IMG/VR virus record: IMGVR_UViG_2778261510_000005
DNA: 64,000 nucleotides
Source of the DNA: a virus
Taxonomy: Duplodnaviria > Heunggongvirae > Uroviricota > Caudoviricetes
Reading direction: 5' to 3' (one strand)
Shown: piece after piece, positions 2,806 to 52,981 of the stretch
Layout of the letters: each line of letters begins with the position of its first letter
Position numbering within the stretch: the stretch's first letter is position 1
Notes under the pieces: model-generated
What the model saw: only the letters and a program-made list of their open reading frames with translations
What the model was told of the DNA's origin: nothing
Database searches by the model: none
Program-made: the position numbers and the translations under genes

Positions 2806-3657
2806 ATGATAAATTATGTCTACGGCGAACAACTGTACCAGGAGTTCGTCAGCTTCAGGGATCTCTTTCTAAAAAAAGCTGTTGCACGCGCCCAACACGT
2901 TGATGCCGCCAGCGACGGTCGTCCTGTACGCCCGGTTGTCGTTCTACCGTTCAAAGAAACAGACAGCATTCAGGCTGAAATTGATAAATGGACTTTAATG
3001 GCGCGGGAACTGGAACAGTACCCAGACCTCAATATCCCAAAGACTATTTTATATCCTGTGCCTAACATCCTTCGCGGTGTGCGTAAGGTTACGACTTATC
3101 AGACAGAAGCTGTGAACAGCGTCAACATGACCGCTGGCCGCATTATTCATCTGATTGATAAGGATATTCGCATCCAAAAAAGCGCGGGGATCAATGAGCA
3201 CAGTGCGAAATACATAGAGAACCTGGAAGCAACAAAAGAGCTAATGAAGCAGTACCCAGAGGATGAAAAATTCCGTATGCGCGTACACGGCTTTAGCGAA
3301 ACAATGCTGCGCGTCCACTACATTTCCAGTAGCCCTAACTACAATGATGGTAAATCAGTTAGTTACCATGTGCCACTGTGTGGCGTGTTTATCTGCGATG
3401 AAACTCTCCGTGATGGAATTATCATCAACGGTGAATTCGAAAAAGCAAAATTTAGCCTTTATGACTCCATAGAACCGATCATCTGCGACCGCTGGCCGCA
3501 AGCAAAAATATATCGCCTGGCAGATATTGAAAATGTAAAAAAACAAATTGCCATCACTCGCGAAGAGAAAAAGGTTAAGTCAGCCGCATCAGTTACGCGC
3601 AGCCGTAAAACCAAGAAGGGGCAGCCAGTAAACGACAACCCCGAAAGCGCGCAATAA
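2806..3657 (+). CDS. c1: C1 master repressor of lysogeny
   Basis: 283-aa protein starting MINYVYGEQLYQEFVSFRDLFLKKAVARAQHVDA, matching P1 C1 in length and sequence as I remember it; cognate operators are scattered through the window. Confidence 0.93.
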   Translation: MINYVYGEQLYQEFVSFRDLFLKKAVARAQHVDAASDGRPVRPVVVLPFKETDSIQAEIDKWTLMARELEQYPDLNIPKTILYPVPNILRGVRKVTTYQTEAVNSVNMTAGRIIHLIDKDIRIQKSAGINEHSAKYIENLEATKELMKQYPEDEKFRMRVHGFSETMLRVHYISSSPNYNDGKSVSYHVPLCGVFICDETLRDGIIINGEFEKAKFSLYDSIEPIICDRWPQAKIYRLADIENVKKQIAITREEKKVKSAASVTRSRKTKKGQPVNDNPESAQ

Positions 3658-3689
3658 ATTATGCCCGGCATCAACCGGGCATTCTTCCA

Positions 3690-4808
3690 TTATTCAGCCG
3701 CCACCGGTTTTAACAAGCCAGCATCGAGCAGTTTACGCGTCAACCACTGCTGGCCTTTACCCGTTAATTGGGGCGTCAGCCGTATCTGGTAGCCATCTTC
3801 ATCATCCAGCACCACTTCTTTCACCGTGAAATACCCCGCGTTGATGTACTGCTGGAACGGCGCATTTTTACGTCCACCGGACGCTATCAGGATGCCGTTC
3901 TCCCGTAACCAGACAAACAGCGCGTTTTGCTTAAGTCCAACAACCTTTGCAAAATTCCCAATCAGGATCCCTTTAGCTACTGATACCCGGTCGGCAAAAT
4001 CGACTTTAAGAGCGGCGGCCACCAGCTGCTGATTTAGCTGGTGGGCTTTCTGTTCCAGAAGTTGCTTTTGTTCAGCCAGTTCGGCAGCCAGGCGTAGGGC
4101 TTCAGGAAGCGTCTGGGGGATTGCGATCGGTTGCTGTTCTTTTTGTCGGAAGTAGCTGTCTTCCAGTTTTTCAAAGAATGCCCATGCCTGATCGGTTTCG
4201 AGCATTTTAGCGTGGCGGGCTGCGCCGCGTTCTGTCCAGAGGGTGAGTGAGCGAACATTGCGAGCAATTTTTACAGAGTAGTTTAAAGCTACTCTGTGCT
4301 TCAACTCGCGCAATGATTCTCCTTCAACTTTGAAAAAGTGCTTCCCTTCAACAAAGCGTACTTTGTTCTCATGATGATTTTGGCGAATACGGATTGTTTC
4401 TGTCCCATACCCTCTAGCAAGAGTCTCGGTTGTCACTACACGCACTCCCTGCCATTCCAGAACGGGAATTTCATCAGACTGATTCTGAACAACCACCAGC
4501 TCCGATTCCTGAACTGAAGGTGCATGAATTTTTTCTAATTTAACGTTATTTGCTTTCATTCTGTGTGCCTCCTTGCGTGCTTCGGCTGCGACGGTTGCGT
4601 AATTCAGATGCCCCTGTTCGAGCAGGTATTCGCGGATATCAGACAACAGGATACGGTGAACCGCGTGTTTGTCCTTTCTCCGGTAAAGTTGTTTGGTGAT
4701 CATGAAGTAGTTGGCAATAACGCCTGGTATATCCCTGGTACTGATACAGGCAGTGTGCTGTTCAATTGCCTCGATCATCTCTTCACGGGTGACTAATGAC
4801 GTTCTCAT
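3690..4808 (-). CDS. Antirepressor-like protein, second Ant paralog (372 aa)
   Basis: N-terminus and C-terminal domain (IPQTLPEALRLAAELAEQK...GKGQQWL..KLLDAGLLKPVA) are paralogous to Ant at 51394..52431; about 400 bp is near-identical at nucleotide level. Start overlaps the stop of the upstream icd-like ORF. Confidence 0.75.
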   Translation of the reverse strand: MRTSLVTREEMIEAIEQHTACISTRDIPGVIANYFMITKQLYRRKDKHAVHRILLSDIREYLLEQGHLNYATVAAEARKEAHRMKANNVKLEKIHAPSVQESELVVVQNQSDEIPVLEWQGVRVVTTETLARGYGTETIRIRQNHHENKVRFVEGKHFFKVEGESLRELKHRVALNYSVKIARNVRSLTLWTERGAARHAKMLETDQAWAFFEKLEDSYFRQKEQQPIAIPQTLPEALRLAAELAEQKQLLEQKAHQLNQQLVAAALKVDFADRVSVAKGILIGNFAKVVGLKQNALFVWLRENGILIASGGRKNAPFQQYINAGYFTVKEVVLDDEDGYQIRLTPQLTGKGQQWLTRKLLDAGLLKPVAAE

Positions 4809-5026
4809 AGTCCCTCCTGAGCCGAAGCGTTAACAGGGAGGCACCAGTAACTGAGAGAATTGCGCGAATCGGTAGAAAAGCGGGCAGAGAAAATACAGGG
4901 AGCATCCGGAAGCTGAGAACGCGCCTCATCTTCTGTTGGTGCGATAACGAAGTGATAGTGACGTTTTTGGCAGGAGTAAAAGCGCCAGATAAATTCAGGA
5001 TGAGTTGGGGTAGGGATAGTAGCCAT
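4805..5026 (-). CDS. Icd-like small protein (73 aa) of a second immI-type cassette
   Basis: Internal ATG at 5026 with AAGGAGG RBS; MATIPTPTHPEFIWRFYSCQKRHYHFVIAPTEDEARSQLPDAPCIFSARFS parallels Icd at 52428..52649; same 4-nt overlap with the downstream ant. Confidence 0.55.
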   Translation of the reverse strand: MATIPTPTHPEFIWRFYSCQKRHYHFVIAPTEDEARSQLPDAPCIFSARFSTDSRNSLSYWCLPVNASAQEGL

Positions 5027-5190
5027 ATTGGCAGCCTCCTTAGACGTTGGTATGTAACCACCGCAGAAGAGACCAATCTTGCTGGCGGTGGACTGTACGG
5101 AGTTGGCCTTACTGGCGTCCAAGGTAACCAGCCTACCCGAAGGTAGCCCCATACAGCCCACCATTGTAGAGGTGTGCGTGTACGCCGATA

Positions 5191-5216
5191 CAAAAAAAAA
5201 GACGCGAGCGGCGTCT
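5191..5216 (-). terminator. Intrinsic terminator on the minus strand within the leader of the second icd/ant cassette
   Basis: AGACGC-GAGCG-GCGTCT hairpin followed, on the minus strand, by a U9 tract (plus-strand A9 at 5192-5200). Confidence 0.55.
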
Positions 5217-5340
5217 GTATCGCCTTAGACTTAAGCGGGAGGCCAATCCCGGCACCCGTTTTAATGAGGTGCCTGATAAGCATAAACCGAAAATGCCTCA
5301 AGGCGCAAGAGGTCAGGCTCAATGTAACATCGGTAGTTAA
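5217..5340 (-). ncRNA. Candidate c4-like antisense/leader RNA of the second immI-type cassette
   Basis: Lies between a C1 operator (5346-5362) and a terminator (5191-5216), upstream of the icd-like RBS; carries a second copy (5221-5229) of the RBS-region sequence CCTTAGAC (5038-5045), as in the P1 c4 decoy/target layout. Boundaries are guesses. Confidence 0.3.
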
Positions 5341-5345
5341 AAAAC

Positions 5346-5362
5346 ACAATTTATTAGAGCAA
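5346..5362 (-). promoter_or_regulatory. C1 operator upstream of the second icd/ant cassette
   Basis: CAATTTATTAGAGCAAA; 2 mismatches to the operator consensus. Confidence 0.65.
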
Positions 5363-5366
5363 ATAT

Positions 5367-6851
5367 TCATTCATTAAGCCATGCCAGAGCTTCATCAACC
5401 TGCGCTTCGTCTTCGACGCTAAGCACTTCATCCTGGGGAACATAATCCGCCAGCATAGCGAAACAATATGTATCCCAATGGTCTGGTGAGTGCAGGTTGA
5501 GTTTTTTCTTCATATCCTCCTTACTCATCACCTTCCATTGACCTGCGGAGTTAATCCCTACAGGGATTTTCGACGCTTCCTCAATAGTTTCATTACCCTT
5601 ATCCAGTCTCATACGACCAGATTTTACGGCCTCTGCGGCTTGAACGTTGGCATAAGCACGTTTATCAAAGTACAGGCTCTTATCTTCACGGCTATGCATC
5701 TTTTTACCCCAGCGTATACGCTGTACGGTAATACCATAATACTCGTACATCAGATCCGCCGTTGCTTTACCCAGGCCATCGCCGTCTATCGCTATGGTGA
5801 TATTTGGGAATCGCTCAGGATTACATTCTGCGAAAATTTTGGCGGCAAGCTGCGTTTCTGTAACGTCTGTGTATTCCAGCATTCGATAGTTGATTACACG
5901 GCGTTTATTTCGCTGGCCGGACACCATCATGATATTGATAACGGACTTATCCCGTCCCGTACCACCAGCAACGTCCACACATGCAAGCCAGCCCCATCCT
6001 TTGGCAATCTTGACTTTCCGCCGCGTTGCACGTTCAACCTCATCACGTCCAAGAAGGAAGCCATCCTGTGATTTAGGGAATAGGCCGCGTACCTTAATCA
6101 TGTACATAGGGTTATCACGCCCGCCGTACTCCGCCAGCTTCATTTTGATAAATGCTGGCGTTACCAACGGTGATTCCTCACTGTTAAGCGTGATCGCCGT
6201 ATAAACGCCATCAGGGTTACCAGGACGCTTGGCCAGTTTATGGTGAGTATCGTAGAAATAGCCGCTTGGGCGTGTAGGCTGTGACAGTAATAAGATGCGG
6301 TTATCCTGTCCGGTAAGAGCACCAGTGATGATACCGAAAGCTCTATCACTGACACCGGAGGCTTCATCGATAATATACAGAAGATGATCTGCGTGTTCAC
6401 CGGCGAGAGCTTCTTCACTTCCCAGACGAAAGCCCTTCGGTACTACAGTCCATACACCTTTACCAGTAACCTCATAGAAAGCGGTTTCTGTCAGAACAAA
6501 ATAATCAGCAAGCCATGGAAAACGGCTGGTGGCAGTAGCCCAGTTTATCTTGATGTACTTGAATATACCGGTCATTACCTGCTGAATTTTGTTCGCAACG
6601 ATAATGGCGCGGGCACCGGGATACATGATTATGAACAACATGATCATGATAGAAGTCATGTCTGATTTCCCGGTACCGTGACCAGACGAAACAGATGTCT
6701 TGCTACCCTGTTCCTGCACAGACTCAATAATCAGATCCTGCTGCCAGGTAGGTGTTTTGCCGAACAAAACATCAGCGGCAGCAATCCAGTCATAACGATA
6801 TAGCGCCACCAGCTCGCGCCAACGTGGATCCGTTACGCAACTTCTGGCCAT
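5367..6851 (-). CDS. pacB: Terminase large subunit PacB
   Basis: 494-aa protein directly downstream of pacA and overlapping its stop; size and position match P1 PacB. Confidence 0.85.
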
Positions 6852-13552: not shown

Positions 13553-16500
13553 ATGACTCATCAGACATACACCATTGCTGAATCCAATAACTTTATCGTT
13601 CTTGATAAGTACATCAAAGCTGAGCCAACAGGCGACAGCTACCAGAGCGAATCGGACCTGGAACGTGAACTGATTCAGGACCTGCAAAATCAGGGCTATG
13701 AATTTATACCCGTAAAATCACAGTCAGCGATGCTGGCCAACGTTCGGGAACAGCTTCAGAGCCTCAATGGTGTGATGTTTAATGACAGCGAGTGGCGGCG
13801 CTTCACGGAGCAGTATCTGGACAACCCCAGCGATGGTATTCTGGATAAAATCCGTAAAATCCATATCGACTATATTTGCGACTTTATTTTTGATGACGAG
13901 CGTCTTGAGAACATCTATCTGATAGATAAAAAGAATCTCATGCGCAATAAGGTGCAGATTATCCAGCAGTTTGAACAGGCAGGTTCTCACGCTAACCGTT
14001 ATGACGTAACTATCCTGGTTAATGGCTTGCCACTGGTGCAAATCGAACTAAAAAAACGCGGGGTGGCGATTCGTGAGGCTTTCAACCAGATACATCGTTA
14101 CAGTAAAGAGAGTTTTAACAGCGAAAATTCCCTGTTTAAGTATCTGCAACTGTTTGTCATTTCTAACGGCACCGATACCCGTTATTTTGCCAACACGACA
14201 AAGCGCGATAAAAACAGTTTTGACTTCACCATGAACTGGGCTAAAGCAGACAATACACTGATTAAAGACCTCAAAGACTTTACCGCTACCTTTTTCCAGA
14301 AACATACTCTGCTTAATGTTCTGGTGAACTACAGCGTTTTTGACAGCAGTCAGACACTACTGGTAATGCGACCGTACCAGATTGCCGCCACCGAGCGCAT
14401 TCTGTGGAAAATTAAGAGTTCCTTTACAGCGAAGAACTGGTCAAAACCGGAAAGCGGTGGGTATATCTGGCACACTACCGGTTCTGGTAAAACCCTCACC
14501 AGCTTTAAAGCCGCGCGTCTGGCAACAGAGCTGGACTTTATTGATAAAGTCTTCTTCGTGGTCGACAGGAAAGACCTCGATTACCAGACCATGAAGGAAT
14601 ATCAGCGTTTTTCGCCAGACAGCGTCAACGGCTCGGAAAATACCGCAGGACTTAAACGAAATCTGGACAAGGACGATAACAAAATTATCGTCACTACTAT
14701 TCAGAAACTCAATAACCTGATGAAAGCAGAAAGCGACCTGCCTGTATATAATCAGCAAGTGGTGTTTATATTTGATGAATGCCACCGCAGCCAGTTTGGA
14801 GAAGCGCAGAAAAACCTGAAGAAGAAATTCAAACGCTATTATCAGTTTGGTTTTACCGGTACCCCTATTTTCCCGGAAAACGCCTTAGGCTCAGAAACGA
14901 CCGCCAGCGTATTTGGTCGTGAATTGCATTCGTATGTAATTACCGATGCGATTCGTGACGAAAAAGTGCTCAAATTCAAGGTGGACTACAACGATGTGCG
15001 GCCACAGTTTAAGTCTTTAGAGACAGAAACTGACGAGAAAAAACTAAGTGCGGCTGAAAATCAGCAGGCGTTTCTTCATCCCATGCGTATTCAGGAAATC
15101 ACGCAATATATTCTGAATAATTTCCGCCAGAAAACTCACCGTACCTTCCCTGGCTCAAAAGGTTTTAATGCTATGTTGGCAGTGAGCAGCGTGGATGCCG
15201 CGAAAGCCTATTATGCGACGTTTAAACGGTTACAAGAAGAAGCCGCTAATAAATCGGCTACCTATAAACCGCTGCGTATTGCGACAATCTTCTCCTTTGC
15301 CGCCAATGAAGAACAAAATGCCATTGGTGAAATTTCCGATGAAACTTTTGATACCAGCGCAATGGACAGCAGTGCTAAAGAGTTTCTGGACGCTGCAATT
15401 CGTGAATATAACAGCCATTTTAAAACTAACTTTAGCACCGACAGTAACGGTTTTCAGAACTACTATCGTGATTTAGCCCAGCGGGTTAAAAATCAGGATA
15501 TCGATCTGCTAATTGTCGTGGGGATGTTCTTAACCGGCTTCGATGCTCCAACATTGAACACGCTATTCGTCGATAAAAACTTACGTTTTCACGGCCTGAT
15601 GCAGGCATTTTCCCGCACCAACCGCATTTATGACGCCACTAAAACCTTCGGTAATATCGTCACTTTCCGGGATCTGGAACGCTCAACTATTGATGCCATA
15701 ACGCTGTTTGGTGACAAAAACACCAAAAATGTGGTGTTAGAAAAGAGTTATACAGAGTATATGGAAGGCTTTACTGATGCTGCTACTGGTGAAGCTAAAC
15801 GCGGCTTTATGACAGTAGTTTCAGAACTGGAACAACGGTTCCCTGACCCTACCAGTATTGAAAGTGAAAAAGAGAAGAAAGACTTCGTTAAACTGTTTGG
15901 CGAATACCTGCGTGCCGAGAACATCCTGCAAAACTATGATGAATTTGCCACGCTGAAAGCCCTGCAACAAATCGATCTTAGCGATCCTGTTGCGGTAGAA
16001 AAATTCAAAGCAGAACATTATGTGGATGATGAAAAGTTCGCTGAATTGCAAACAATTCGTCTCCCTGCTGATCGCAAGATTCAGGATTATCGTTCTGCCT
16101 ATAACGATATTCGCGACTGGCAGCGCCGTGAGAAAGAAGCTGAGAAAAAAGAGAAATCAACCACTGACTGGGATGACGTGGTTTTTGAGGTTGATTTGCT
16201 GAAGTCTCAGGAAATAAACCTGGATTATATCCTTGGACTGATTTTCGAACACAACAGACAAAATAAAGGCAAGGGCGAAATGATCGAAGAGGTCAAACGC
16301 TTAATTCGTTCAAGCCTGGGGAACCGTGCTAAAGAGGGCCTGGTGGTCGATTTTATTCAGCAAACGAACCTGGATGATTTACCGGACAAAGCCAGCATCA
16401 TTGACGCATTCTTTACGTTTGCTCAACGCGAACAGCAACGTGAAGCAGAAGCATTGATAAAAGAAGAAAATCTCAATGAAGATGCAGCAAAACGCTATAT

Positions 16501-16669
16501 TCGCACGTCTTTAAAACGCGAATACGCCACCGAAAATGGCACAGAATTAAACGAAACATTACCAAAACTTAGTCCGTTGAATCCGCAATATAAAACGAAA
16601 AAACAGGCAGTTTTCCAGAAAATCGTCTCGTTTATTGAGAAGTTTAAAGGCGTAGGCGGAAAAATATAG
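13553..16669 (+). CDS. hsdR: Type I restriction endonuclease/helicase subunit HsdR
   Basis: 1038 aa with SF2 helicase motifs (TGSGKT Walker A, DECH box) and an N-terminal nuclease region; same length as EcoR124I HsdR. Confidence 0.93.
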
Positions 16670-16747
16670 CCCAATTCGTGTTTTTCTTGCGGGTTCTTAA
16701 TTAAACCCGCAAGAGCTCGTGGGGTTCCAAATGGCTAATATACTCCC

Positions 16748-16835
16748 CTTACCCATGCGCGACGATGCCGCCAAAAGTGATAGAGAACAGCCAGAAATAG
16801 ATCGCGGCCATAATGATTTTGAATGCCGTGTTCAT
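16748..16835 (-). CDS. Candidate small hydrophobic peptide (28 aa), possible type I toxin or small membrane protein
   Basis: MNTAFKIIMAAIYFWLFSITFGGIVAHG with AGGAG RBS 8 nt upstream; not in the supplied ORF track (below its length cutoff); a plus-strand terminator converges on its 5-prime region. Confidence 0.3.
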
Positions 16836-16863
16836 ATTTTCAGCTCCTGTGATTGATTGGATA

Positions 16864-16894
16864 CATGCCGCGCCTTGCGGCATGTTTTTATTTT
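16864..16894 (+). terminator. Rho-independent terminator on the plus strand (CATGCCG-loop-CGGCATG + T-run)
   Basis: 7-bp perfect stem followed by TTTTTATTTT; preceded by TGATTGATTGG. Confidence 0.55.
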
Positions 16895-16917
16895 CACTTT
16901 CTCTGTTTTAAAAATCA

Positions 16918-16934
16918 AGATTTATTAGAGCAAT
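16918..16934 (-). promoter_or_regulatory. C1 operator
   Basis: AGATTTATTAGAGCAAT, 16/17 match; flanking context AAAAATCAAGA is nearly identical to that at 2141-2164. Confidence 0.75.
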
Positions 16935-17440
16935 TATTGCTGATGGAGAAGCGCGTTTTCATACTCCCTGACCATTAACGTAAGTACGCCGTGACTCCTG
17001 AAAACACGCGCCACGTCAATCTTATCTTCCAGCGCGAACGCAATTTTACTTAGACCAATTTTCTTCAGGAGATCAATCTTTGCTGGACCGTCATTTCTGT
17101 CATCGGTGGCAGGACGCATAGATAGCAAAGGCTCAGTCCCATTTGTTACGTGCTTACGCAACCAGGCTCGTGTTTTATCCCTGGCTATCTCACAGCGCCC
17201 GGTTACAAACCAGAGGGTGTAAATGCCGGACAACTGGCGCACCATATCAATAACTGGAGTGATGGGAGCATCAGTGTCACAGGCAAGGTTAAACTCGTTC
17301 CAGTGCTCTGTTAATGCACCTTTGCCAGGTGGTGGAAGTAAATGCAGCCTGTCTTCCGTTGCCTCTGATATCGTCCCATCAATATCTACTATGACGATGT
17401 ACGGACGTTCCTGGTGTGCGTGTTTATTGAAAATACTCAA
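16934..17440 (-). CDS. HAD-superfamily phosphatase-like protein (168 aa)
   Basis: N-terminal IVIVDIDGTIS (DxDGT) motif typical of HAD phosphatases; might correspond to a P1 pap-like gene. Confidence 0.6.
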   Translation of the reverse strand: MSIFNKHAHQERPYIVIVDIDGTISEATEDRLHLLPPPGKGALTEHWNEFNLACDTDAPITPVIDMVRQLSGIYTLWFVTGRCEIARDKTRAWLRKHVTNGTEPLLSMRPATDDRNDGPAKIDLLKKIGLSKIAFALEDKIDVARVFRSHGVLTLMVREYENALLHQQ

Positions 17441-17512
17441 ATGCCCTCCTCATTGGACGAAAAAAATGCTGGTGGGAGCACTCCACCAGCATTAAAAGTG
17501 ACACTGTAACTA

Positions 17513-18775
17513 TCAGCGAACGTAAATAGTGCCGCCGTTCTCTTTTTCCCATGCATCGCTACGTGCATAGCAAACATCGAGAAGTCTTCTTGCCGCAGTT
17601 TCCTCTAAACCCAATTCGACAACCAACTGCTCATGACGGCGGGTAACCACATCAAACAGGGTATGCAGCCCTTTAGTTGCCAGATCATCAATGAATTCCG
17701 GTTCGAACGGCAGCTCTGCATCTGCCAACATAACCTCTTGCGCCCACTCAACTCGACGGACCAATTCCGGGCGGCGGCTTTCCATCTCTTTACAGATCAA
17801 TTCATGGAAGAACTCTACCCAACCTTCCGGCTGGAACTCGCGGAAAATTGCCAACGGCTGGAAGTTTGGCATCAACCATTCGTTGATTCGGATATCAATG
17901 GCATAGCCCATGTCGCAGCAGAACTGATAAGCAAAGTCCAGCTTAGACACGATATAAGGACGCTCGTTATTGAACTCTTTAGGCGATGAGATCCCATAAG
18001 CCAGGAGGCGCGGGAAGAAGGATATTTGCCCTAACGTCGGATGAAGTTTGCTTGCAGGGAAACGGCGCTCAGTAATGCCATACATTTCCTTCTTGAGCGT
18101 CGCAAATTTGGCATTCTCATTAACCAGCGCGGTAACCTCTGCTTTTTTATTAGCAAATGCCACGCGCGCTTCGCTTGCATCTTTAATAGTTTTTTTGAGC
18201 TGTTGGTTAAGGTCGGCGACCTGCTTACGCAGTTCCTGTCGCTCGCTTTTAGCTTTGTTATAGCGTTTCTCAAGGTTAAAAGGATCAAGTTTCATGATCT
18301 CTTTATATTGAGATTTTAGCGTTGAAATCTGTGAGTTCCGCAGTTCAACCATCGCGGTCATTTCATTGAGTTTTGTTTCCAGCTCAATGCTTATACGTTC
18401 GGCATTATCAGCACGCTGGTTGGCGTCATGCGTCGCATCGTCGAGCGCGTCCTGTTGCTGGCGTTTCAAATGTTCAATTTGCAGCTGAAGCTCTTCAATT
18501 TCTTTATCCTTCAGACCGAGATCCAACTGCATATTTTCAGCTGCATCTACCAGGGAGTTATGGCTATCAGCTTCTGCGTTATAAACATCAATAAGCTGTG
18601 CGTGAAGCATCTCCGCTGACTGAACCGCATTATCAAAAAAACGCGCTGTGAGGTCATCACAACTAACGCGGCGTTGCGCGGCCCGGATGTTCTGGATAAT
18701 GGCCTGGATACCGGCATTCAGGACGTCAGGGATAGATACATTTTCGATTGATTGGTTTTGTGCTGAAGTGATCAT
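17513..18775 (-). CDS. Hypothetical protein with long N-terminal coiled coil (420 aa)
   Basis: Heptad-rich, charged N-terminal half (EELQLQIEHLKRQQQDALDD...) and a Cys/aromatic-rich C-terminal domain; no family recognised. Confidence 0.65.
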   Translation of the reverse strand: MITSAQNQSIENVSIPDVLNAGIQAIIQNIRAAQRRVSCDDLTARFFDNAVQSAEMLHAQLIDVYNAEADSHNSLVDAAENMQLDLGLKDKEIEELQLQIEHLKRQQQDALDDATHDANQRADNAERISIELETKLNEMTAMVELRNSQISTLKSQYKEIMKLDPFNLEKRYNKAKSERQELRKQVADLNQQLKKTIKDASEARVAFANKKAEVTALVNENAKFATLKKEMYGITERRFPASKLHPTLGQISFFPRLLAYGISSPKEFNNERPYIVSKLDFAYQFCCDMGYAIDIRINEWLMPNFQPLAIFREFQPEGWVEFFHELICKEMESRRPELVRRVEWAQEVMLADAELPFEPEFIDDLATKGLHTLFDVVTRRHEQLVVELGLEETAARRLLDVCYARSDAWEKENGGTIYVR

Positions 18776-18776
18776 T

Positions 18777-18995
18777 TCAAAGTTCCGTATTAGCTTGTGC
18801 TTCGGTCATTTTTCCTAAGTATGAAGGAGGAAGGACTACGCAATTTGTATCCAGTCCCTCACCTATGGCAGCCTGTAAAATTCTGGCTAAGGTGAGTCTC
18901 TTGTTGCGATACCTGGTGATGACATGCCTGATACCGCCGGTCGGCGTAACAAAGGCGATCAGCCAGTAGTGATATTTCCGTCGGAATGGCCACAT
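18777..18995 (-). CDS. Hypothetical small protein (72 aa)
   Basis: ORF abutting the upstream gene, downstream of the operator-flanked hairpin at 19010-19075. Confidence 0.45.
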   Translation of the reverse strand: MWPFRRKYHYWLIAFVTPTGGIRHVITRYRNKRLTLARILQAAIGEGLDTNCVVLPPSYLGKMTEAQANTEL

Positions 18996-19009
18996 AGTGC
19001 ACCTTGTAG

Positions 19010-19026
19010 ATTGCTCTAATAAAAAA
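19010..19026 (+). promoter_or_regulatory. C1 operator-like site, left member of an inverted pair
   Basis: ATTGCTCTAATAAAAAA; 11-mer core perfect, 3 mismatches at the distal end. Confidence 0.5.
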
Positions 19027-19050
19027 CGTGATGAGTGTACATCACGTTTT
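19023..19050 (-). terminator. Perfect 10-bp inverted repeat hairpin (AAAACGTGAT-N8-ATCACGTTTT) between the two operators
   Basis: Followed on the minus strand by a U-rich tract; sits between convergently oriented operator copies. Confidence 0.45.
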
Positions 19051-19058
19051 AAAAATAT

Positions 19059-19075
19059 GGAATTATTAGAGCAAT
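19059..19075 (-). promoter_or_regulatory. C1 operator-like site, right member of the inverted pair
   Basis: GGAATTATTAGAGCAAT; core perfect, 3 mismatches distally. Confidence 0.5.
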
Positions 19076-19100
19076 ATTATTCTGATTCTCGCTCAAAAAA

Positions 19101-19778
19101 TCAGCTGATAAGGGGAAGCCAATCCTCTGACACTTCGCGAGGTCGCGGTTTGCCGTGGAAAAAGATTATTCGGCAGTCTTTTGGTAATGCCCCATTCCCC
19201 CTGGAGTAACGCGCGCTCGCATATTTTGAACCAGGTTCCACAACATCGGCCTTGTAACTTACAAACCATCCTGGATACAGATCCTGAAATGCTGGTGTAT
19301 CATCGCCCATAACCTTTCGTAAGAACCCCTGGTCCCCCCAGCACTCAGTAGTGACACAACGAGAAATCCAACCTTCCGGATCTTGCCAGAATGAACTCCA
19401 GATATGCGCTTTAACACTATTTGGTATCCACAGGGCACCGCTGCCACGATATTGTGGATGGTAAAAATCCCTAAGCATGGTGAAGCTGGTTGGTGGATGC
19501 TCTAGGATTGGGCGTATATCACCGGCAATAACCGTGTCCAAATCCAGATAGAACAGATCATCGGTTATATCCGGTCGGAACAACTCGATTTTCGCCCACC
19601 AGCCACGGCACTTTTGCCACTGGTTGATCAATGGGACAACTTTGACGCCAGGTACATGTAAACGCTTCAGGTCTGTCAGGCAAATAATTTCATAGCCTTT
19701 TGGCAGTTGATTAACCAGCCACTGCACATCGGAAGCGTTATAGTCACCACCAGAGCGAAAAACTAAAGCAATCTTCAT
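19101..19778 (-). CDS. Hypothetical protein with DxD motif, possible GT-A-type glycosyltransferase (225 aa)
   Basis: [12 protein letters not shown] resembles the DxD sugar-nucleotide-binding motif; weak inference. Confidence 0.5.
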
Positions 19779-20473
19779 GCTGCACCATCACCTTTCACTT
19801 TCACTTTCATCAATGTCAGGTTTCCGCAAAATACGGCACCAGTGTCGATATACTGCTGATTCCAGAATGTCTTCGGGCTTTTCACCGGAGTGTGACCAAA
19901 GATAAAACGATCTGCGCCCGAAATTTCGCCACCAATATCATCCATCGAATCACTGATACGCTCGCGCGCCCAGACAACGTTGAAAAGCGGCACCTCCTTA
20001 CCGAATTGGTATTCATTATCCGGATAGTCGGCATGGGCTATAACGATAGTTTCTTGCCCCGTGTTCAACTCAATGATATAGGGCAGACGCTTTACCAGCT
20101 CCACCAGCGCCCAGGCTAATATTTCCTGATCAGTGTCCAGCATGAAGAACCATTGTCCGCCATTCATTAGCCAGTTATTCACGTTGCCATCTGGACTTAA
20201 CGCATCAATCATCAGCCGCTCATGGTTCCCCATCACTGCCCTGAACCAGGGCATCTGCAATAGTTCCAGACATTCGACATTTTCAGTACCGCGATCGATA
20301 AGGTCGCCTACCGATATCAGTAAATCCTGCGCCGGGTCAAAATCCACACGATGGAGTTCGGACATCAGTCTGGTGTAGCAACCATGCAGATCACCAACAA
20401 CCCAGACATTCCTGTATTTGGTACCGTCGATACGGTGATAAATTGTGGGTGCCATCATGTATTCTTCAGCCAT
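19775..20473 (-). CDS. Ser/Thr protein phosphatase (calcineurin-like metallophosphoesterase)
   Basis: Metallophosphatase motifs GDLHG, GDLIDRG, GNHE; P1 carries a ppp gene of this family. Confidence 0.85.
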
Positions 20474-21081
20474 TCTTTAAGAGTCATCTGCGGAATACCT
20501 CCCATTTTCCCGCATGAAACAACGTCAATCTGTTCACGCGCAGACTGGAATAACAAAGGCAGGTGACTTAGATTTTTTGGCGTGCCGCCGGAGTGAACGC
20601 GTAGTTCTTGCGTAGCGTCAACGCCCACCAGAGCTACATGTTTGAATCCGATATGGAAAGCCAGGTTCAGAGCACCATATGCACTATTGCCGCTGGCAAT
20701 TTCATTCTCATCTTCGCAAAGGCCGAAATGTGCGGACCAGCGCCACGCCCACCACTCGGGAGAATTCGTATTTTTTGGCTCCATGCCACGTTCAGCCACA
20801 CGACGGAAGCACAGAACGCCGTCTCTGACTTCACGTTCTTTAACATCGGGTAGTGCCATGCAATAACAAACACCACGGCGACGGCGGCCACGACCAACGC
20901 GCCGCATATTGTCTGGCGATGGATCAAGTGTGAAAAAATAAGAAGCGCGGTTCAGCCAGTCGATGGCCCCATTGACCGCTATAATCGGCACTCCGCGCGG
21001 CGCAACAAAGTTTGCGGCGCTTGGACCACTGCCGACGATAATAACGCGATCACTGCCTCTAAATTTATTCTTGGGAAACAT
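20455..21081 (-). CDS. Hypothetical Rossmann-like protein (208 aa), paralog of the upstream gene
   Basis: IIVGSGPSA...IIAVNGA...LVGVD pattern shared with 20979..21641; AGGAG RBS before ATG at 21081. Confidence 0.6.
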
Positions 21082-50429: not shown

Positions 50430-51230
50430 TTAGCGCGTAGCCGCGACAGGTACCAGCACACCAGCATCAAGCAATCGCTTCATTAGCCACTGCTGACCTT
50501 TGCCGGTTATACGAGTCGTGAAAGAAATCCTGCTTCCGTTGCTTGTATCGATCACGGTTTCTTTGAGGGTGAAGTACCCACGGGATATGTATTCTTGTTT
50601 GGGGACGTTCCTGCGTTCACCGGTTGCGATCAGAATTCCGTTATCACGCAACCAGGTGAAGAGATAGTTTTGGCCCAGGCCGAGCACTTTGGCATAGTTG
50701 CCGATTAGAACCCCGCTGGCGGTAGCAACGCGTTCGGCGAATTCGACTTTAGGCGCATCCATAAGCATTTTTTGCTCCAGCCGTTGCTTTTGCTCTGCCA
50801 GGTCGGCAGCCAAACGGAGAGCTTCAGGGAGACTCTGCGGAATAGCAGGTTGCAATCTTCCGGCTCGATAGTCGATAAATGTCTGGTTTACCTTCAGCCG
50901 AAACGCGGGAGAAATCCAGCCTGCGTACTCCACAGCGAGCAATTCATGGGCAAACGTACCGCCGCCACGGCCTTCGAACGAAACTATGCAATTCTGCATA
51001 GTTTCTTTTTCAAGCTCTTCGATGAGCTGTTTGGCTGACAGCGTTCTTAGCCATTGAGCTGGCGCTTTATGGGCACCGAGTCCGCTCGCTCTGTGTAGAG
51101 CATTAAGGTTGTAACGGCCAGCGTGGTCGGTCGTAATTTCAACACCACAAATAACAGGCAGAGTGGTTGAAGGATCGACATTTTGATGAAGGTTTGATAT
51201 ATTCATATCCGCATTGAATGTTTGCTGCAT
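50430..51230 (-). CDS. kilA: KilA (KilA-N domain + antirepressor-type C-terminal domain)
   Basis: 266 aa; C-terminal IPQSLPEALRLAADLAEQK...GKGQQWL paralogous to the Ant C-terminal domain; preceded by a C1 operator. Confidence 0.82.
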   Translation of the reverse strand: MQQTFNADMNISNLHQNVDPSTTLPVICGVEITTDHAGRYNLNALHRASGLGAHKAPAQWLRTLSAKQLIEELEKETMQNCIVSFEGRGGGTFAHELLAVEYAGWISPAFRLKVNQTFIDYRAGRLQPAIPQSLPEALRLAADLAEQKQRLEQKMLMDAPKVEFAERVATASGVLIGNYAKVLGLGQNYLFTWLRDNGILIATGERRNVPKQEYISRGYFTLKETVIDTSNGSRISFTTRITGKGQQWLMKRLLDAGVLVPVAATR

Positions 51231-51299
51231 TTTTTCTCCAAATTTGCATCAACCTTCAATCACCAGCTCGAAATGGTGATTCTTTGTACTTAGAAAACG

Positions 51300-51316
51300 A
51301 AATTTATTAGAGCAAA
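51300..51316 (-). promoter_or_regulatory. C1 operator upstream of kilA-repL (Op53-like)
   Basis: AAATTTATTAGAGCAAA, 16/17 match, 70 bp upstream of the kilA start. Confidence 0.8.
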
Positions 51317-51393
51317 TTTTTCTAACTCGATCCAGATCGGGTTGGATGATCTGCTCAGAAACCTGCCAGTTTGCTGGCAGGTTTTTTCTTTTG

Positions 51394-52431
51394 TTAACCT
51401 ATTGCTACTGGTTTTAACAAACCAGCATCAAGTAGCTTGCGAGTTAACCACTGCTGGCCTTTACCCGTTAATTGGGGCGTCAGCCGTATCTGATAGCCAT
51501 TTTCATCATCCAGCACCACTTCTTTCACCGTGAAATACCCGGCGTTAATGTACTGCTGGCGCGGTACGTTTTTGCGCGCACCAAAAGCCATGAGAATGCC
51601 GTTCTGGCGCAACCATGAGAAAAGGGCGTTTTGCTTAAGTCCAACGACCTTTGCAAAGTTACCGATCAGGATTCCATTAGCCACTGATACCCGGTCGGCA
51701 AAATCGACTTTAGGTGCTGCGGCCACCAGCTGTTGTTCCAGATGCATTTTCTGTTCTGCCAACTCGGCAGCCAGGCGTAGGGCTTCTGGTAATGTTTGGG
51801 GGATCGATGGGGTAGGGGAGTTTGCCTGCTGCAATTCTTCCAGTTTGTCGATCAGCGAACGGCGGACAGCTTTTGATTCGCGCGCGGCGACTCGCAGGGC
51901 TTGTTTGTAGGTCATGGTTATGACAAGCATTGATGTTTTGTTCATTTTTTCCACTACACTTTTTGTGTAGTGCTCACCATCAAGCTCATCGAGTATTTTT
52001 TCGATGAATTTGTTGTTCCGAACCTCTGGTTCCCCACATAACTTACGCGCTTCATTGACCATCTTTAACAGTGTCTGGCTGTCGATTGTGTCTCCAGTGT
52101 TGGAGATAACATTCACAGTTGGTGATGGCGTAGCTAAAGCAACAGGTGCTGGTTTTTCAACATTCAAATTATTACCGGTCATTCTGCGCGCCTCCTTTCT
52201 CATTTCTGCTGCCACCGTTGCGTAACGTAGACGTCCTTGTTCAATCAAATAATCCCTGATCTCGGCTATCAGTAGCCTGTTGATCACAGCCTTATCTGTT
52301 CGGGTATAAAAACGCCTGGTTATCATGAAATAGTTGGCAATTGCGCCGGGGATCTCCCGTGTCGGCATACAGGCAGTATGCAGGGCGATCGCTTCGGCTA
52401 TGTCATTACGGGTGACGAGAGGTTTTTTCAT
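51394..52431 (-). CDS. ant: Antirepressor Ant (ant1/ant2)
   Basis: 345 aa; start overlaps the icd stop; placed between the c4 region and kilA-repL as in P1 immI. Confidence 0.82.
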   Translation of the reverse strand: MKKPLVTRNDIAEAIALHTACMPTREIPGAIANYFMITRRFYTRTDKAVINRLLIAEIRDYLIEQGRLRYATVAAEMRKEARRMTGNNLNVEKPAPVALATPSPTVNVISNTGDTIDSQTLLKMVNEARKLCGEPEVRNNKFIEKILDELDGEHYTKSVVEKMNKTSMLVITMTYKQALRVAARESKAVRRSLIDKLEELQQANSPTPSIPQTLPEALRLAAELAEQKMHLEQQLVAAAPKVDFADRVSVANGILIGNFAKVVGLKQNALFSWLRQNGILMAFGARKNVPRQQYINAGYFTVKEVVLDDENGYQIRLTPQLTGKGQQWLTRKLLDAGLLKPVAIG

Positions 52432-52649
52432 AAAACCTCCTGAACGTCGGCAGAGAAGGGGAGGTTCCAGTAACTAAGTGAATTGCGCGAGTTAGTTGAA
52501 AAACGGGCAGTAAAAATGCAGGGGCCATCAGGCAATTGAGAGCGTGCTTCGTCTTCAGTTGCTGCGATAACGAAGTGATAGTGGTGTTTTTTACAGGAAT
52601 AGAAACGCCAGATGAATTCTTGGCGTGCGCAAGGATTGGCATTAACCAT
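52428..52649 (-). CDS. icd: Icd (interference with cell division), small protein co-translated with ant
   Basis: 73 aa, MVNANPCARQEFIWRFYSCKKHHYHFVIAATEDEARSQLPDGPCIFTARFS; position and size as in P1 immI. Confidence 0.75.
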   Translation of the reverse strand: MVNANPCARQEFIWRFYSCKKHHYHFVIAATEDEARSQLPDGPCIFTARFSTNSRNSLSYWNLPFSADVQEVL

Positions 52650-52689
52650 AGTTACGGCCTCACAATCAGGTTTAACAACCTGCTACCCG

Positions 52690-52900
52690 CTGTCAAACAG
52701 GTGGCAGGACGTGACAGGGTTGACAGACTGGCGATTGTGAAACCAGCAGGCCGAAGCCTCCCCATCACGCCCCACCATAATTTGGGCGTAACGCGGTTTT
52801 ACGGACACAAAAATACCGCAATATCGGAAATCTGCGGTTGTCCGCACAATCATTCAGGCTGTCAAACCTGGTCGCAGAATTTGCTACGACGGCGGGAACT
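52690..52900 (-). ncRNA. c4: c4 antisense repressor RNA region (immI leader)
   Basis: Leader between a C1 operator (52965-52981) and icd holds short mutually complementary elements (CTGTCAAAC at 52690 and 52868; GTTGACAG at 52719) consistent with c4-type pairing; exact ends not determinable by eye. Confidence 0.4.
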
Positions 52901-52964
52901 ATAAGCCTGAACGATTAAAAGGTCAATATGATGCGAAAAGATAGCATTCGCCACTTAAAAATAC

Positions 52965-52981
52965 AAATTTATTAGAGCAGA
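52965..52981 (-). promoter_or_regulatory. C1 operator at the c4/icd/ant promoter (Op51-like)
   Basis: AAATTTATTAGAGCAGA, 15/17 match. Confidence 0.7.

Follow-up and report, generated by a model that had tools for sequence, protein, structure and literature searches.

The closest described relatives of the operon reported here are the immI operon of P1 and P7 and the isrK locus of Salmonella. The textbook view that each genome carries one immI was formed on the laboratory phages P1 and P7, and the mechanism of the P1 operon, in which the antisense RNA c4 controls icd and with it the antirepressor gene ant, has been described (PMC8198154; annotation of the P1 record). In the Gifsy-1 isrK-orf45-anrP locus of Salmonella (Hershko-Shalev et al., 2016) a Rho-independent terminator is read through to the downstream genes, the short IsrK RNA activates downstream translation in trans more than 100-fold, and a processed RNA of ~80 nt (STnc1160), which is complementary to IsrK, arises from the read-through (PMC4825925); a parallel between the IsrK locus and P4 CI was drawn in the same paper. 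The DNA analyzed here (the window, meaning the whole stretch of 64,000 nucleotides from the IMG/VR virus record IMGVR_UViG_2778261510_000005) is that of a P1-like phage-plasmid that carries, in addition to a canonical immI, a cassette of 1,709 bp between c1 and pacB (3658–5366, minus strand). Judged from its sequence, this cassette is probably a functional second module of the immI type, that is, an operon under a C1 operator in which c4 would control icd and, through ATGA coupling, a chimeric antirepressor of the Ant1/Ant2 type.

Leader RNAs, operator and genes of the second cassette

The elements of the operon, in the direction of transcription, are:

5347–5363, minus strand: C1 operator-like 17-mer TTTGCTCTAATAAATTG, with 15 of 17 consensus matches, beginning 4 nt past the pacB stop codon
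5321–5349, minus strand: putative upstream promoter-like element (TTGTGT-17 nt-TACATT), placed like P2c4/P51a in P1 and with a −35 that overlaps the operator
5279–5308, minus strand: putative downstream promoter-like element (TTGCGC-18 nt-TATGCT), at the operator offset of P1 P1c4/P51b
5193–5272, minus strand: IsrK-type RNA element (Rfam RF01394, 60.8 bits, gathering threshold 50, at 5195–5272; also terminator scan and a1/b1 covariation), made up of hairpin 1, hairpin 2 with a1 TTGGCCT in its loop (5240–5246), and the two parts that follow
5223–5230, minus strand: b1 GTCTAAGG, in the single-stranded linker of the IsrK element
5200–5216, minus strand: stem of an intrinsic terminator (T-run 5192–5200; terminator scan), the last hairpin of the IsrK element
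5087–5164, minus strand: c4-type antisense RNA (Rfam RF01695, 75.9 bits, gathering threshold 45, at 5081–5168)
5117–5124, minus strand: b' CCTTGGAC, in the hairpin loop of c4
5103–5109, minus strand: a' AGGCCAA, in a single-stranded bulge of c4
5035–5076, minus strand: c4 target region of the icd-ant mRNA, with a2 TTGGTCT (5070–5076) and b2 GTCTAAGG (5038–5045)
4805–5026, minus strand: icd-like gene of 73 amino acids; its product and the canonical Icd of the window share 81% identity
3690–4808, minus strand: ant paralog of 372 amino acids, ATGA-coupled to icd (overlap 4805–4808; Pfam, BLASTP)

Two structured RNAs precede icd. The upstream one matched the isrK model over its whole length (positions 1–77 of 77), and the downstream one has the fold of a c4 RNA (minimum free energy (MFE) −40.1 kcal/mol, z = −3.56, compared to z = −4.51 for the canonical c4, which is alike in architecture) with a ...CCACCGCCA tail at its 3' end. 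A preliminary description of this DNA had seen a c4-like leader with a terminator; the hairpin with its T-run is there and a c4 was recognized by Rfam, but the leader is not simply c4-like: an IsrK-type element with a1/b1 and the terminator comes first, and c4 is a distinct RNA downstream of it. The small RNA proposed at 5217–5340 was misplaced. Promoter makes up most of this interval, and the predicted small RNAs occupy 5193–5272 and 5087–5164. The c4-a1b1 model (RF03163) scored 20.5 bits at 5232–5285, below its gathering threshold of 46.7, compared to 47.1 bits in the canonical immI. In the window a' pairs with a2 and b' with b2, and b2 overlaps the icd Shine-Dalgarno sequence AAGGAGG (5035–5041). 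When the whole read-through leader (5020–5272, minus strand) is folded, the MFE structure (−99.4 kcal/mol, z = −3.77) has a1 paired in cis with a', and b1 with b', and this cis-paired fold competes with the stand-alone c4 fold.

The homologous cassettes compared came from 79 IMG/VR loci, of which 62 are of this cassette type, and from four plasmids and three phage records. Pairing was counted in the 58 of these 62 IMG/VR loci that share the standard leader start, which yielded 20 distinct leaders, with Watson-Crick and G-U combinations scored as paired. All cells were paired at a1:a' (140/140), a2:a' (140/140), b1:b' (160/160) and b2:b' (160/160), giving a total of 600/600, compared to only 14–68% when the partner was slid by 1–3 columns as a control. 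Five combinations of a/b cores were found, GGCC/GTCT (27 loci, the class of the window), GAGA/GCAA (14 loci), GGAA/GCAA (10 loci), GAGA/GTCA (7 loci) and GGAA/GTCA (4 loci), and every change of class was compensated at all three sites. Polymorphic columns of the long-leader family fell in the sites at 12/45 compared to 12/222 elsewhere (Fisher p = 7.7e-5), and the long c4 stem showed compensatory changes between the short- and long-leader families. These counts show that the predicted RNA–RNA contacts are what selection maintains and diversifies, and recognition sites diversified in this manner are the pattern that would be expected from the heteroimmunity paradigm of P1 and P7. Specificity was judged by direct comparison of the sites together with the covariation counts; RNAduplex energies, calculated for whole c4 RNAs against whole target regions, gave no discrimination because intramolecular structure is ignored.

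Open reading frames (ORFs) overlying c4 were considered and rejected as genes. These were a 119-amino-acid ORF (4805–5164, minus strand) that runs from an ATG inside c4 in frame into icd, and a 39-amino-acid “ash family protein” called by the Prokaryotic Genome Annotation Pipeline over c4 in long-leader relatives (locus L004, 2883–3002; loci L005 and L006, 2880–2999). As the c4 stems covary as RNA, and frame and length differ between the leader families, both look like artefacts of ORF calling on a c4 RNA gene. The Gifsy-1 “orf45”, conserved in nucleotides and not in amino acids, is a parallel (PMC4825925).

A C1 operator upstream of each of the two cassettes of the window, as had been reported, was found in the form of 17-mers at 5347–5363 and 52965–52981 (both minus strand), each with two mismatches to the consensus ATTGCTCTAATAAATTT. 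C1-operator-like sites numbered 10 in the window compared to 0.01 expected by chance. The operator of the cassette and the Op51 region of the canonical immI are homologous (89.7% over 29 nt), and the core TTGCTCTAATAAATTG of the cassette operator was identical in all eight loci of the first set and in all but four of the operator-bearing IMG/VR leaders, the exceptions being single substitutions. In an alignment with the P1 Oc4/P2c4 annotation, the operator offsets of both promoter-like elements equal those annotated for P51a and P51b of P1, and the start predicted for the downstream element coincides with the 5' end of IsrK (5272). Elsewhere in the window, two overlapping and opposed C1 operator matches (32636–32652, plus strand; 32647–32663, minus strand, a perfect consensus) form a bivalent-looking operator at 32636–32663.

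The two icd/ant gene pairs were present as previously given, 4805–5026 with 3690–4808 and 52428–52649 with 51394–52431 (all minus strand), and the 4-nt ATGA overlap of icd and ant is seen in the sequence of both pairs. The 73-amino-acid icd ORF was found in 61 of the 62 homologous loci, the remaining one being cut by a contig end, and ATG or GTG alternate as start codon at one position among the homologues. Neither Icd of the window had a Pfam match; the Icd of P1 inhibits FtsZ (PMC11897509). The ant paralog encodes a mosaic with an Ant1-like N-terminus (residues 1–95), an ORF6N domain (~116–202; PF10543, 69.7 bits, cut-off 27.8) and an ANT/KilAC domain (260–361; PF03374, 100.9 bits, cut-off 25.3). 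By BLASTP it is 55% identical to the canonical Ant1 overall, with ~62% over residues 1–95 and ~88% in the C-terminal KilAC domain, and the closest phage relatives of the ORF6N middle were antirepressor/AntB genes of Shiga toxin (Stx)-converting lambdoid phages (68%). A nested Ant2-like start at 4559 (codon 84), with AAGGAGG, 8 nt and ATG (4574–4557) as in P1 ant2, was kept in 52 of 53 homologues. The gene is intact at 370–372 amino acids in 47 of the 62 loci, and the ratio of nonsynonymous to synonymous substitution rates (dN/dS) was 0.31 overall, with 0.16 in the N-terminus, 0.42 in the middle and 0.09 in the C-terminus. A PDB sequence search with the Ant paralog gave no match. The gene is labeled “ant” in RCS47 and “Roi” in JL22 and vB_EcoM-673R5. 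In one related IMG/VR locus (L044) the middle domain of Ant is unrelated (17% identity).

Overall, the anatomy given in the preliminary description stood and its repeat identity and small-RNA coordinates did not; its interpretation found support in part, and strong support in its core, a second complete operon of the immI type with operator, riboregulatory leader, icd and ant.

Insertion site, distribution and the canonical immI

The cassette is flanked by c1 (2806–3657, plus strand) and coi on one side and by pacB (5367–6851, minus strand) and pacA on the other. In P1 the stop codons of c1 and pacB lie 24 bp apart (pacB ends at 93206 and c1 at 93231 of the P1 record), and comparison of the junctions showed that the 1,709 bp replace this spacer in the window. 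The features that delimit the cassette and those used for comparison with the canonical copy are:

3658–5366, minus strand: the whole inserted cassette, from the P1 junction compared to the window
3661–3682, minus strand: terminator-like hairpin where ant and c1 converge, in the gap between them (terminator scan), which closes the cassette
3700–4121, minus strand: direct repeat in the ant C-terminal region, matching canonical ant at 51404–51804
51394–52981, minus strand: canonical immI, with the Op51-like site (52965–52981), c4-a1b1 (52851–52904) and c4 (52697–52782)
52428–52649 and 51394–52431, minus strand: icd and ant1/2 of the canonical immI

By nucleotide comparison P1, P7 and phiW39 lack the cassette, with matches only to the flanks and the ant 3' end, and the cassette is thus not a standard feature of all P1 genomes. 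Nor is it the oddity of one genome that the preliminary description took it for. At a coverage of at least 80% it was present in 290 PLSDB plasmids, and the full cassette was found in 279 complete E. coli genomes compared to 697 carrying c1 (~40%). All seven relatives inspected have it at the c1/pacB site, and RCS47, JL22, vB_EcoM-673R5, pTZ20_1P and hundreds of P1-like plasmids share site and gene order at 87–99% nucleotide identity; among the relatives there are other a/b classes and also a long-leader form, in which the leader has an insert of 21 nt. Among P1-like elements the cassette is thus a natural polymorphism, and a common one. Most full-coverage records among the matches listed had at least two matching places, which indicates that the cassette and the canonical ant coexist stably. 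Three PLSDB plasmids (NZ_CP029181.1, NZ_CP063488.1 and a third, H44) showed the full cassette with a single matching place, the 3' end of the canonical ant having no match of its own; in these the canonical immI may be gone and the c1/pacB cassette retained.

The insertion was mentioned, together with RCS47, by Venturini et al. (2019; PMC6906374). In the searchable literature, which covers subscription journals incompletely, this brief mention was the only one found, with no functional study of the cassette and no description of its operator/IsrK/c4 anatomy, specificity classes or chimeric Ant; the Venturini paper and the records of RCS47, JL22 and others likewise describe no operator, IsrK/c4 RNAs or specificity classes. 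The cassette is not new as an object but is an uncharacterized member of the known c4/IsrK-controlled antirepressor operons.

The window contains exactly two icd and three KilAC genes by tblastn, and the canonical immI and kilA together occupy 50430–52981. KilA (50430–51230) has an ANT/KilAC domain by Pfam and is, as previously noted, the third protein with the C-terminal domain of Ant. DNA shared by the two cassettes is limited to two blocks, one covering icd and the ant 5' end (69.6% over 467 bp) and the other the ant C-terminal direct repeat (4121–3700 compared to 51804–51404). Pairwise alignment gave 81.1% identity over 423 bp for the latter, which had been called near-identical; the longest stretches without mismatch measure 47, 39 and 30 bp.

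The recognition sequences of the two c4 RNAs are unrelated (a' CTGTCAA and b' TCACAATC in the canonical c4, compared to a' AGGCCAA and b' CCTTGGAC in that of the cassette), and cross-repression would therefore not be expected. The canonical c4 (52697–52782, minus strand; targets at 52647–52700, minus strand) combines a P1-type a' CTGTCAA and a2 TTGACAG with a P7-type b' TCACAATC and b2 GATTGTGA, that is, a P1/P7 hybrid immunity specificity. Among the canonical-type cassettes, two a' types and no fewer than five b' loops were seen, and a2/b2 matched in each case. Further cassettes were met at other sites. Three IMG/VR loci (L034, L044 and L063) hold an IsrK/c4/icd cassette of the same type in another upstream context (...ACAAATTGCTCTAATTATTTTGT...), not after pacB. 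A further operator-c4-icd cassette of canonical type lies in the cre-ref-mat region of L076 (IMGVR_UViG_2648501186_000003, 15411–20608) and also of L081 and L082, with flanks matching P1 635–3462, ~6 kb from the c1/pacB cassette, and one 42-kb contig (L014, L080 and L085) has three Icd matches. The window also has tRNA genes by Rfam at 30228–30300, 31828–31900 and 31906–31978 (minus strand; 64.7–76.8 bits), which are ordinary for P1-type genomes.

Proposed circuit and competing explanations

In a lysogen, C1 bound at 5347–5363 would shut the upstream promoter, and a weaker, constitutive downstream promoter, placed by positional homology to P1, would fire at ~5272. Most transcripts would end at the terminator observed at 5200–5216, yielding an IsrK-like RNA of ~80 nt that carries a1/b1, and a fraction would read through it, as in Gifsy-1 IsrK. 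The read-through RNA would be processed in the manner of P1 and P7 to a c4 of ~78 nt (5087–5164); in P1, c4 is released from its precursor by RNase P. The b' and a' of c4, which are complementary to b2 and a2, would by pairing with them occlude the icd Shine-Dalgarno sequence and block translation as they do in P1 and P7, so that neither Icd nor Ant would be made. On entry into a cell without a matching c4, including a lysogen of another c4 class, Icd and the Ant1/Ant2-like proteins would be made; Icd would block division and Ant would antagonize C1, giving an independent immunity specificity on top of that of the canonical immI. The a1/b1 on the short IsrK-like RNA may compete for c4 and so set the switching threshold, a role suggested by trans-activation in Gifsy-1. 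Dual immunity specificity, as first put forward for this DNA, is plausible and fits the unrelated a'/b' sequences and the presence of at least five classes, provided that Ant inactivates C1. C1 as the target of the Ant paralog is the weakest link in this scheme; it is favoured by the shared N- and C-termini, by the C1 operator and by the location next to c1.

Several observations weigh against a second immI module acting in this way. The ORF6N middle of Ant is unrelated to the middle of P1 Ant and resembles antirepressors of lambdoid phages, so C1 may not be the target. Across the elements C1 is 95–99.8% conserved in nucleotides, compared to 17–100% identity in the Ant middle domain, which is not as tight co-evolution with C1 predicts. 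Nothing in P1 immI corresponds to the terminator between promoter and c4, and the stoichiometry and logic may therefore differ. A sigma-70 promoter scan of the leader returned no promoter at its threshold and both promoter-like elements are weak (7/12 consensus positions each), so that the promoters were assigned solely by positional homology to P1. Finally, ant is truncated in some homologues, such as p1506-2 (L004), vB_EcoM-673R5 and a minority of the IMG/VR loci.

The first two of these observations are also what would be seen if the RNA switch worked as proposed and Ant were directed at other prophage repressors (lambdoid or Stx) or were a Roi-like DNA-binding protein, which would make the cassette a C1-regulated weapon or accessory and not a part of P1 immunity. 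The middle domain is 50–68% identical to antirepressor/AntB genes of lambdoid phages, Stx phages among them, and no part of the protein varies more, though C1 is nearly invariant. The “Roi” label of two records agrees with this explanation, and antirepressors that act in trans to induce other prophages have been reported from Salmonella (PMC3121763). However, the Ant1-specific N-terminus, the nested Ant2 start and the KilAC domain are shared with the C1-binding Ant of P1 type and are under strong purifying selection, and the C1 operator wiring and the position beside c1 recur in every relative fetched; we regard a target other than C1 as unlikely, though it is the alternative to be taken most seriously. 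The truncated or split ant genes and the weak promoter elements could instead mean that the cassette is an inert passenger, a copy of immI that is in decay and has no present function. Against this stand the perfect compensatory covariation at three separate sites in five classes, an icd of 73 amino acids in nearly all loci with ant intact in most, the low dN/dS (0.31 overall, 0.09–0.16 in the shared domains) and the retention of the cassette at one site in hundreds of plasmids. Full pairing, intact genes and dN/dS together exclude a decaying remnant as far as such data can, and we give it almost no credence.

It had also been suggested that the direct repeats are substrates for recombination over ~47 kb, and the main consequence of the cassette might then be structural, with RecA-dependent deletion or splitting of the plasmid. 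The ant 3' regions are indeed direct repeats on the same strand, 47.7 kb apart, with the exact runs noted above. At 81% over 423 bp, however, they are homeologous DNA and poor substrates; recombination between homeologous sequences is inefficient and is opposed by mismatch repair. Both copies coexist in most full-coverage records among the matches listed, and the full cassette is retained in the 279 complete genomes. In view of this identity, of the shortness of the exact runs and of two copies that coexist stably, recombination is a minor point and a chiefly structural role is very improbable.

Returning to the second immI module, a broader version of it can be offered tentatively. P1-like elements might run two, sometimes three, orthogonal c4 circuits on one C1, the 4–5 recognition nucleotides of each diversifying to form a combinatorial immunity barcode; a single matching c4 missing from any resident would then be enough for an incoming element to escape it and to induce or displace it, and the IsrK-like small RNA of the c1/pacB cassette would be a c4 sponge that makes the circuit tunable independently of C1. 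We consider this possible but doubtful. If it were true, the same logic would recast the IsrK of Gifsy-1 as a decoy for c4. Of the natural P1-like elements in E. coli, ~40% carry a second, independently specified c4/icd/ant circuit beside c1, and such elements are important carriers of resistance genes. If Ant acts on C1, superinfection immunity, induction by incoming relatives and competition among incompatible phage-plasmids would depend on a multi-locus RNA code, which would supersede the single P1/P7 distinction.

Comparison with known systems

The cassette resembles the immI of P1 and P7 in several respects. A C1 operator overlaps an upstream promoter-like element, with a second promoter-like element at equal offset; c4 has b' in a loop and a' in a bulge, with a1/b1 upstream and a2/b2 downstream, and b2 lies over the ribosome-binding site of icd; and a 73-amino-acid Icd is followed, through ATGA coupling, by an Ant with an Ant1-like N-terminus, a nested start of the Ant2 type and a KilAC C-terminus. 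As in P1/P7 heteroimmunity, few nucleotides appear to set the specificity. It differs in its location between c1 and pacB, whereas the immI of P1 and P7 adjoins sim/kilA, in having an IsrK-type a1/b1 element with an intrinsic terminator at its end, in a'/b' sequences that are unrelated to those of either P1 or P7, and in the ORF6N middle of its Ant, with nucleotide identity to the canonical cassette of 70–81% in the shared blocks.

The ORF6N plus KilAC architecture, with ORF6N 50–68% identical, is that of the Ant/AntB proteins of Stx phages and of proteins of the HK022 Roi type. Unlike Stx-phage Ant/AntB, the Ant of the cassette adds ~95 N-terminal residues specific to P1 Ant1 and the nested start, and it would be expressed from a c4-controlled operon. 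With the CI RNA of P4 and its seqA/seqC, which belongs to the Rfam clan of c4, the cassette would share a processed antisense RNA lying between complementary targets in one transcript; unlike the cassette, P4 CI causes premature termination of transcription of the replication genes and has no icd/ant and no C1 operator.

The cassette and the Gifsy-1 isrK locus both have an RNA of the IsrK family with a terminator and, downstream, an IsrK-complementary RNA of ~80 nt (STnc1160 in Gifsy-1, the predicted c4 here), both use AUGA coupling into an antirepressor-like gene, and the MFE fold of the cassette leader pairs the middle of IsrK with downstream RNA in cis, as in the translationally inactive “structure A” of Gifsy-1. 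The two differ in that icd lies between c4 and ant in the cassette whereas orf45 overlaps the small-RNA region in Gifsy-1, and in that the cassette has P1 C1 operator control and no neighbouring AntQ antiterminator, its neighbours being pacB upstream and c1 downstream. At the level of its predicted RNAs the cassette would work like the IsrK locus, but it is not the Gifsy-1 circuit. It joins two usually separate literatures, that of P1 c4 and that of Salmonella IsrK, and is a compact natural system for the logic of antisense, decoy and target.

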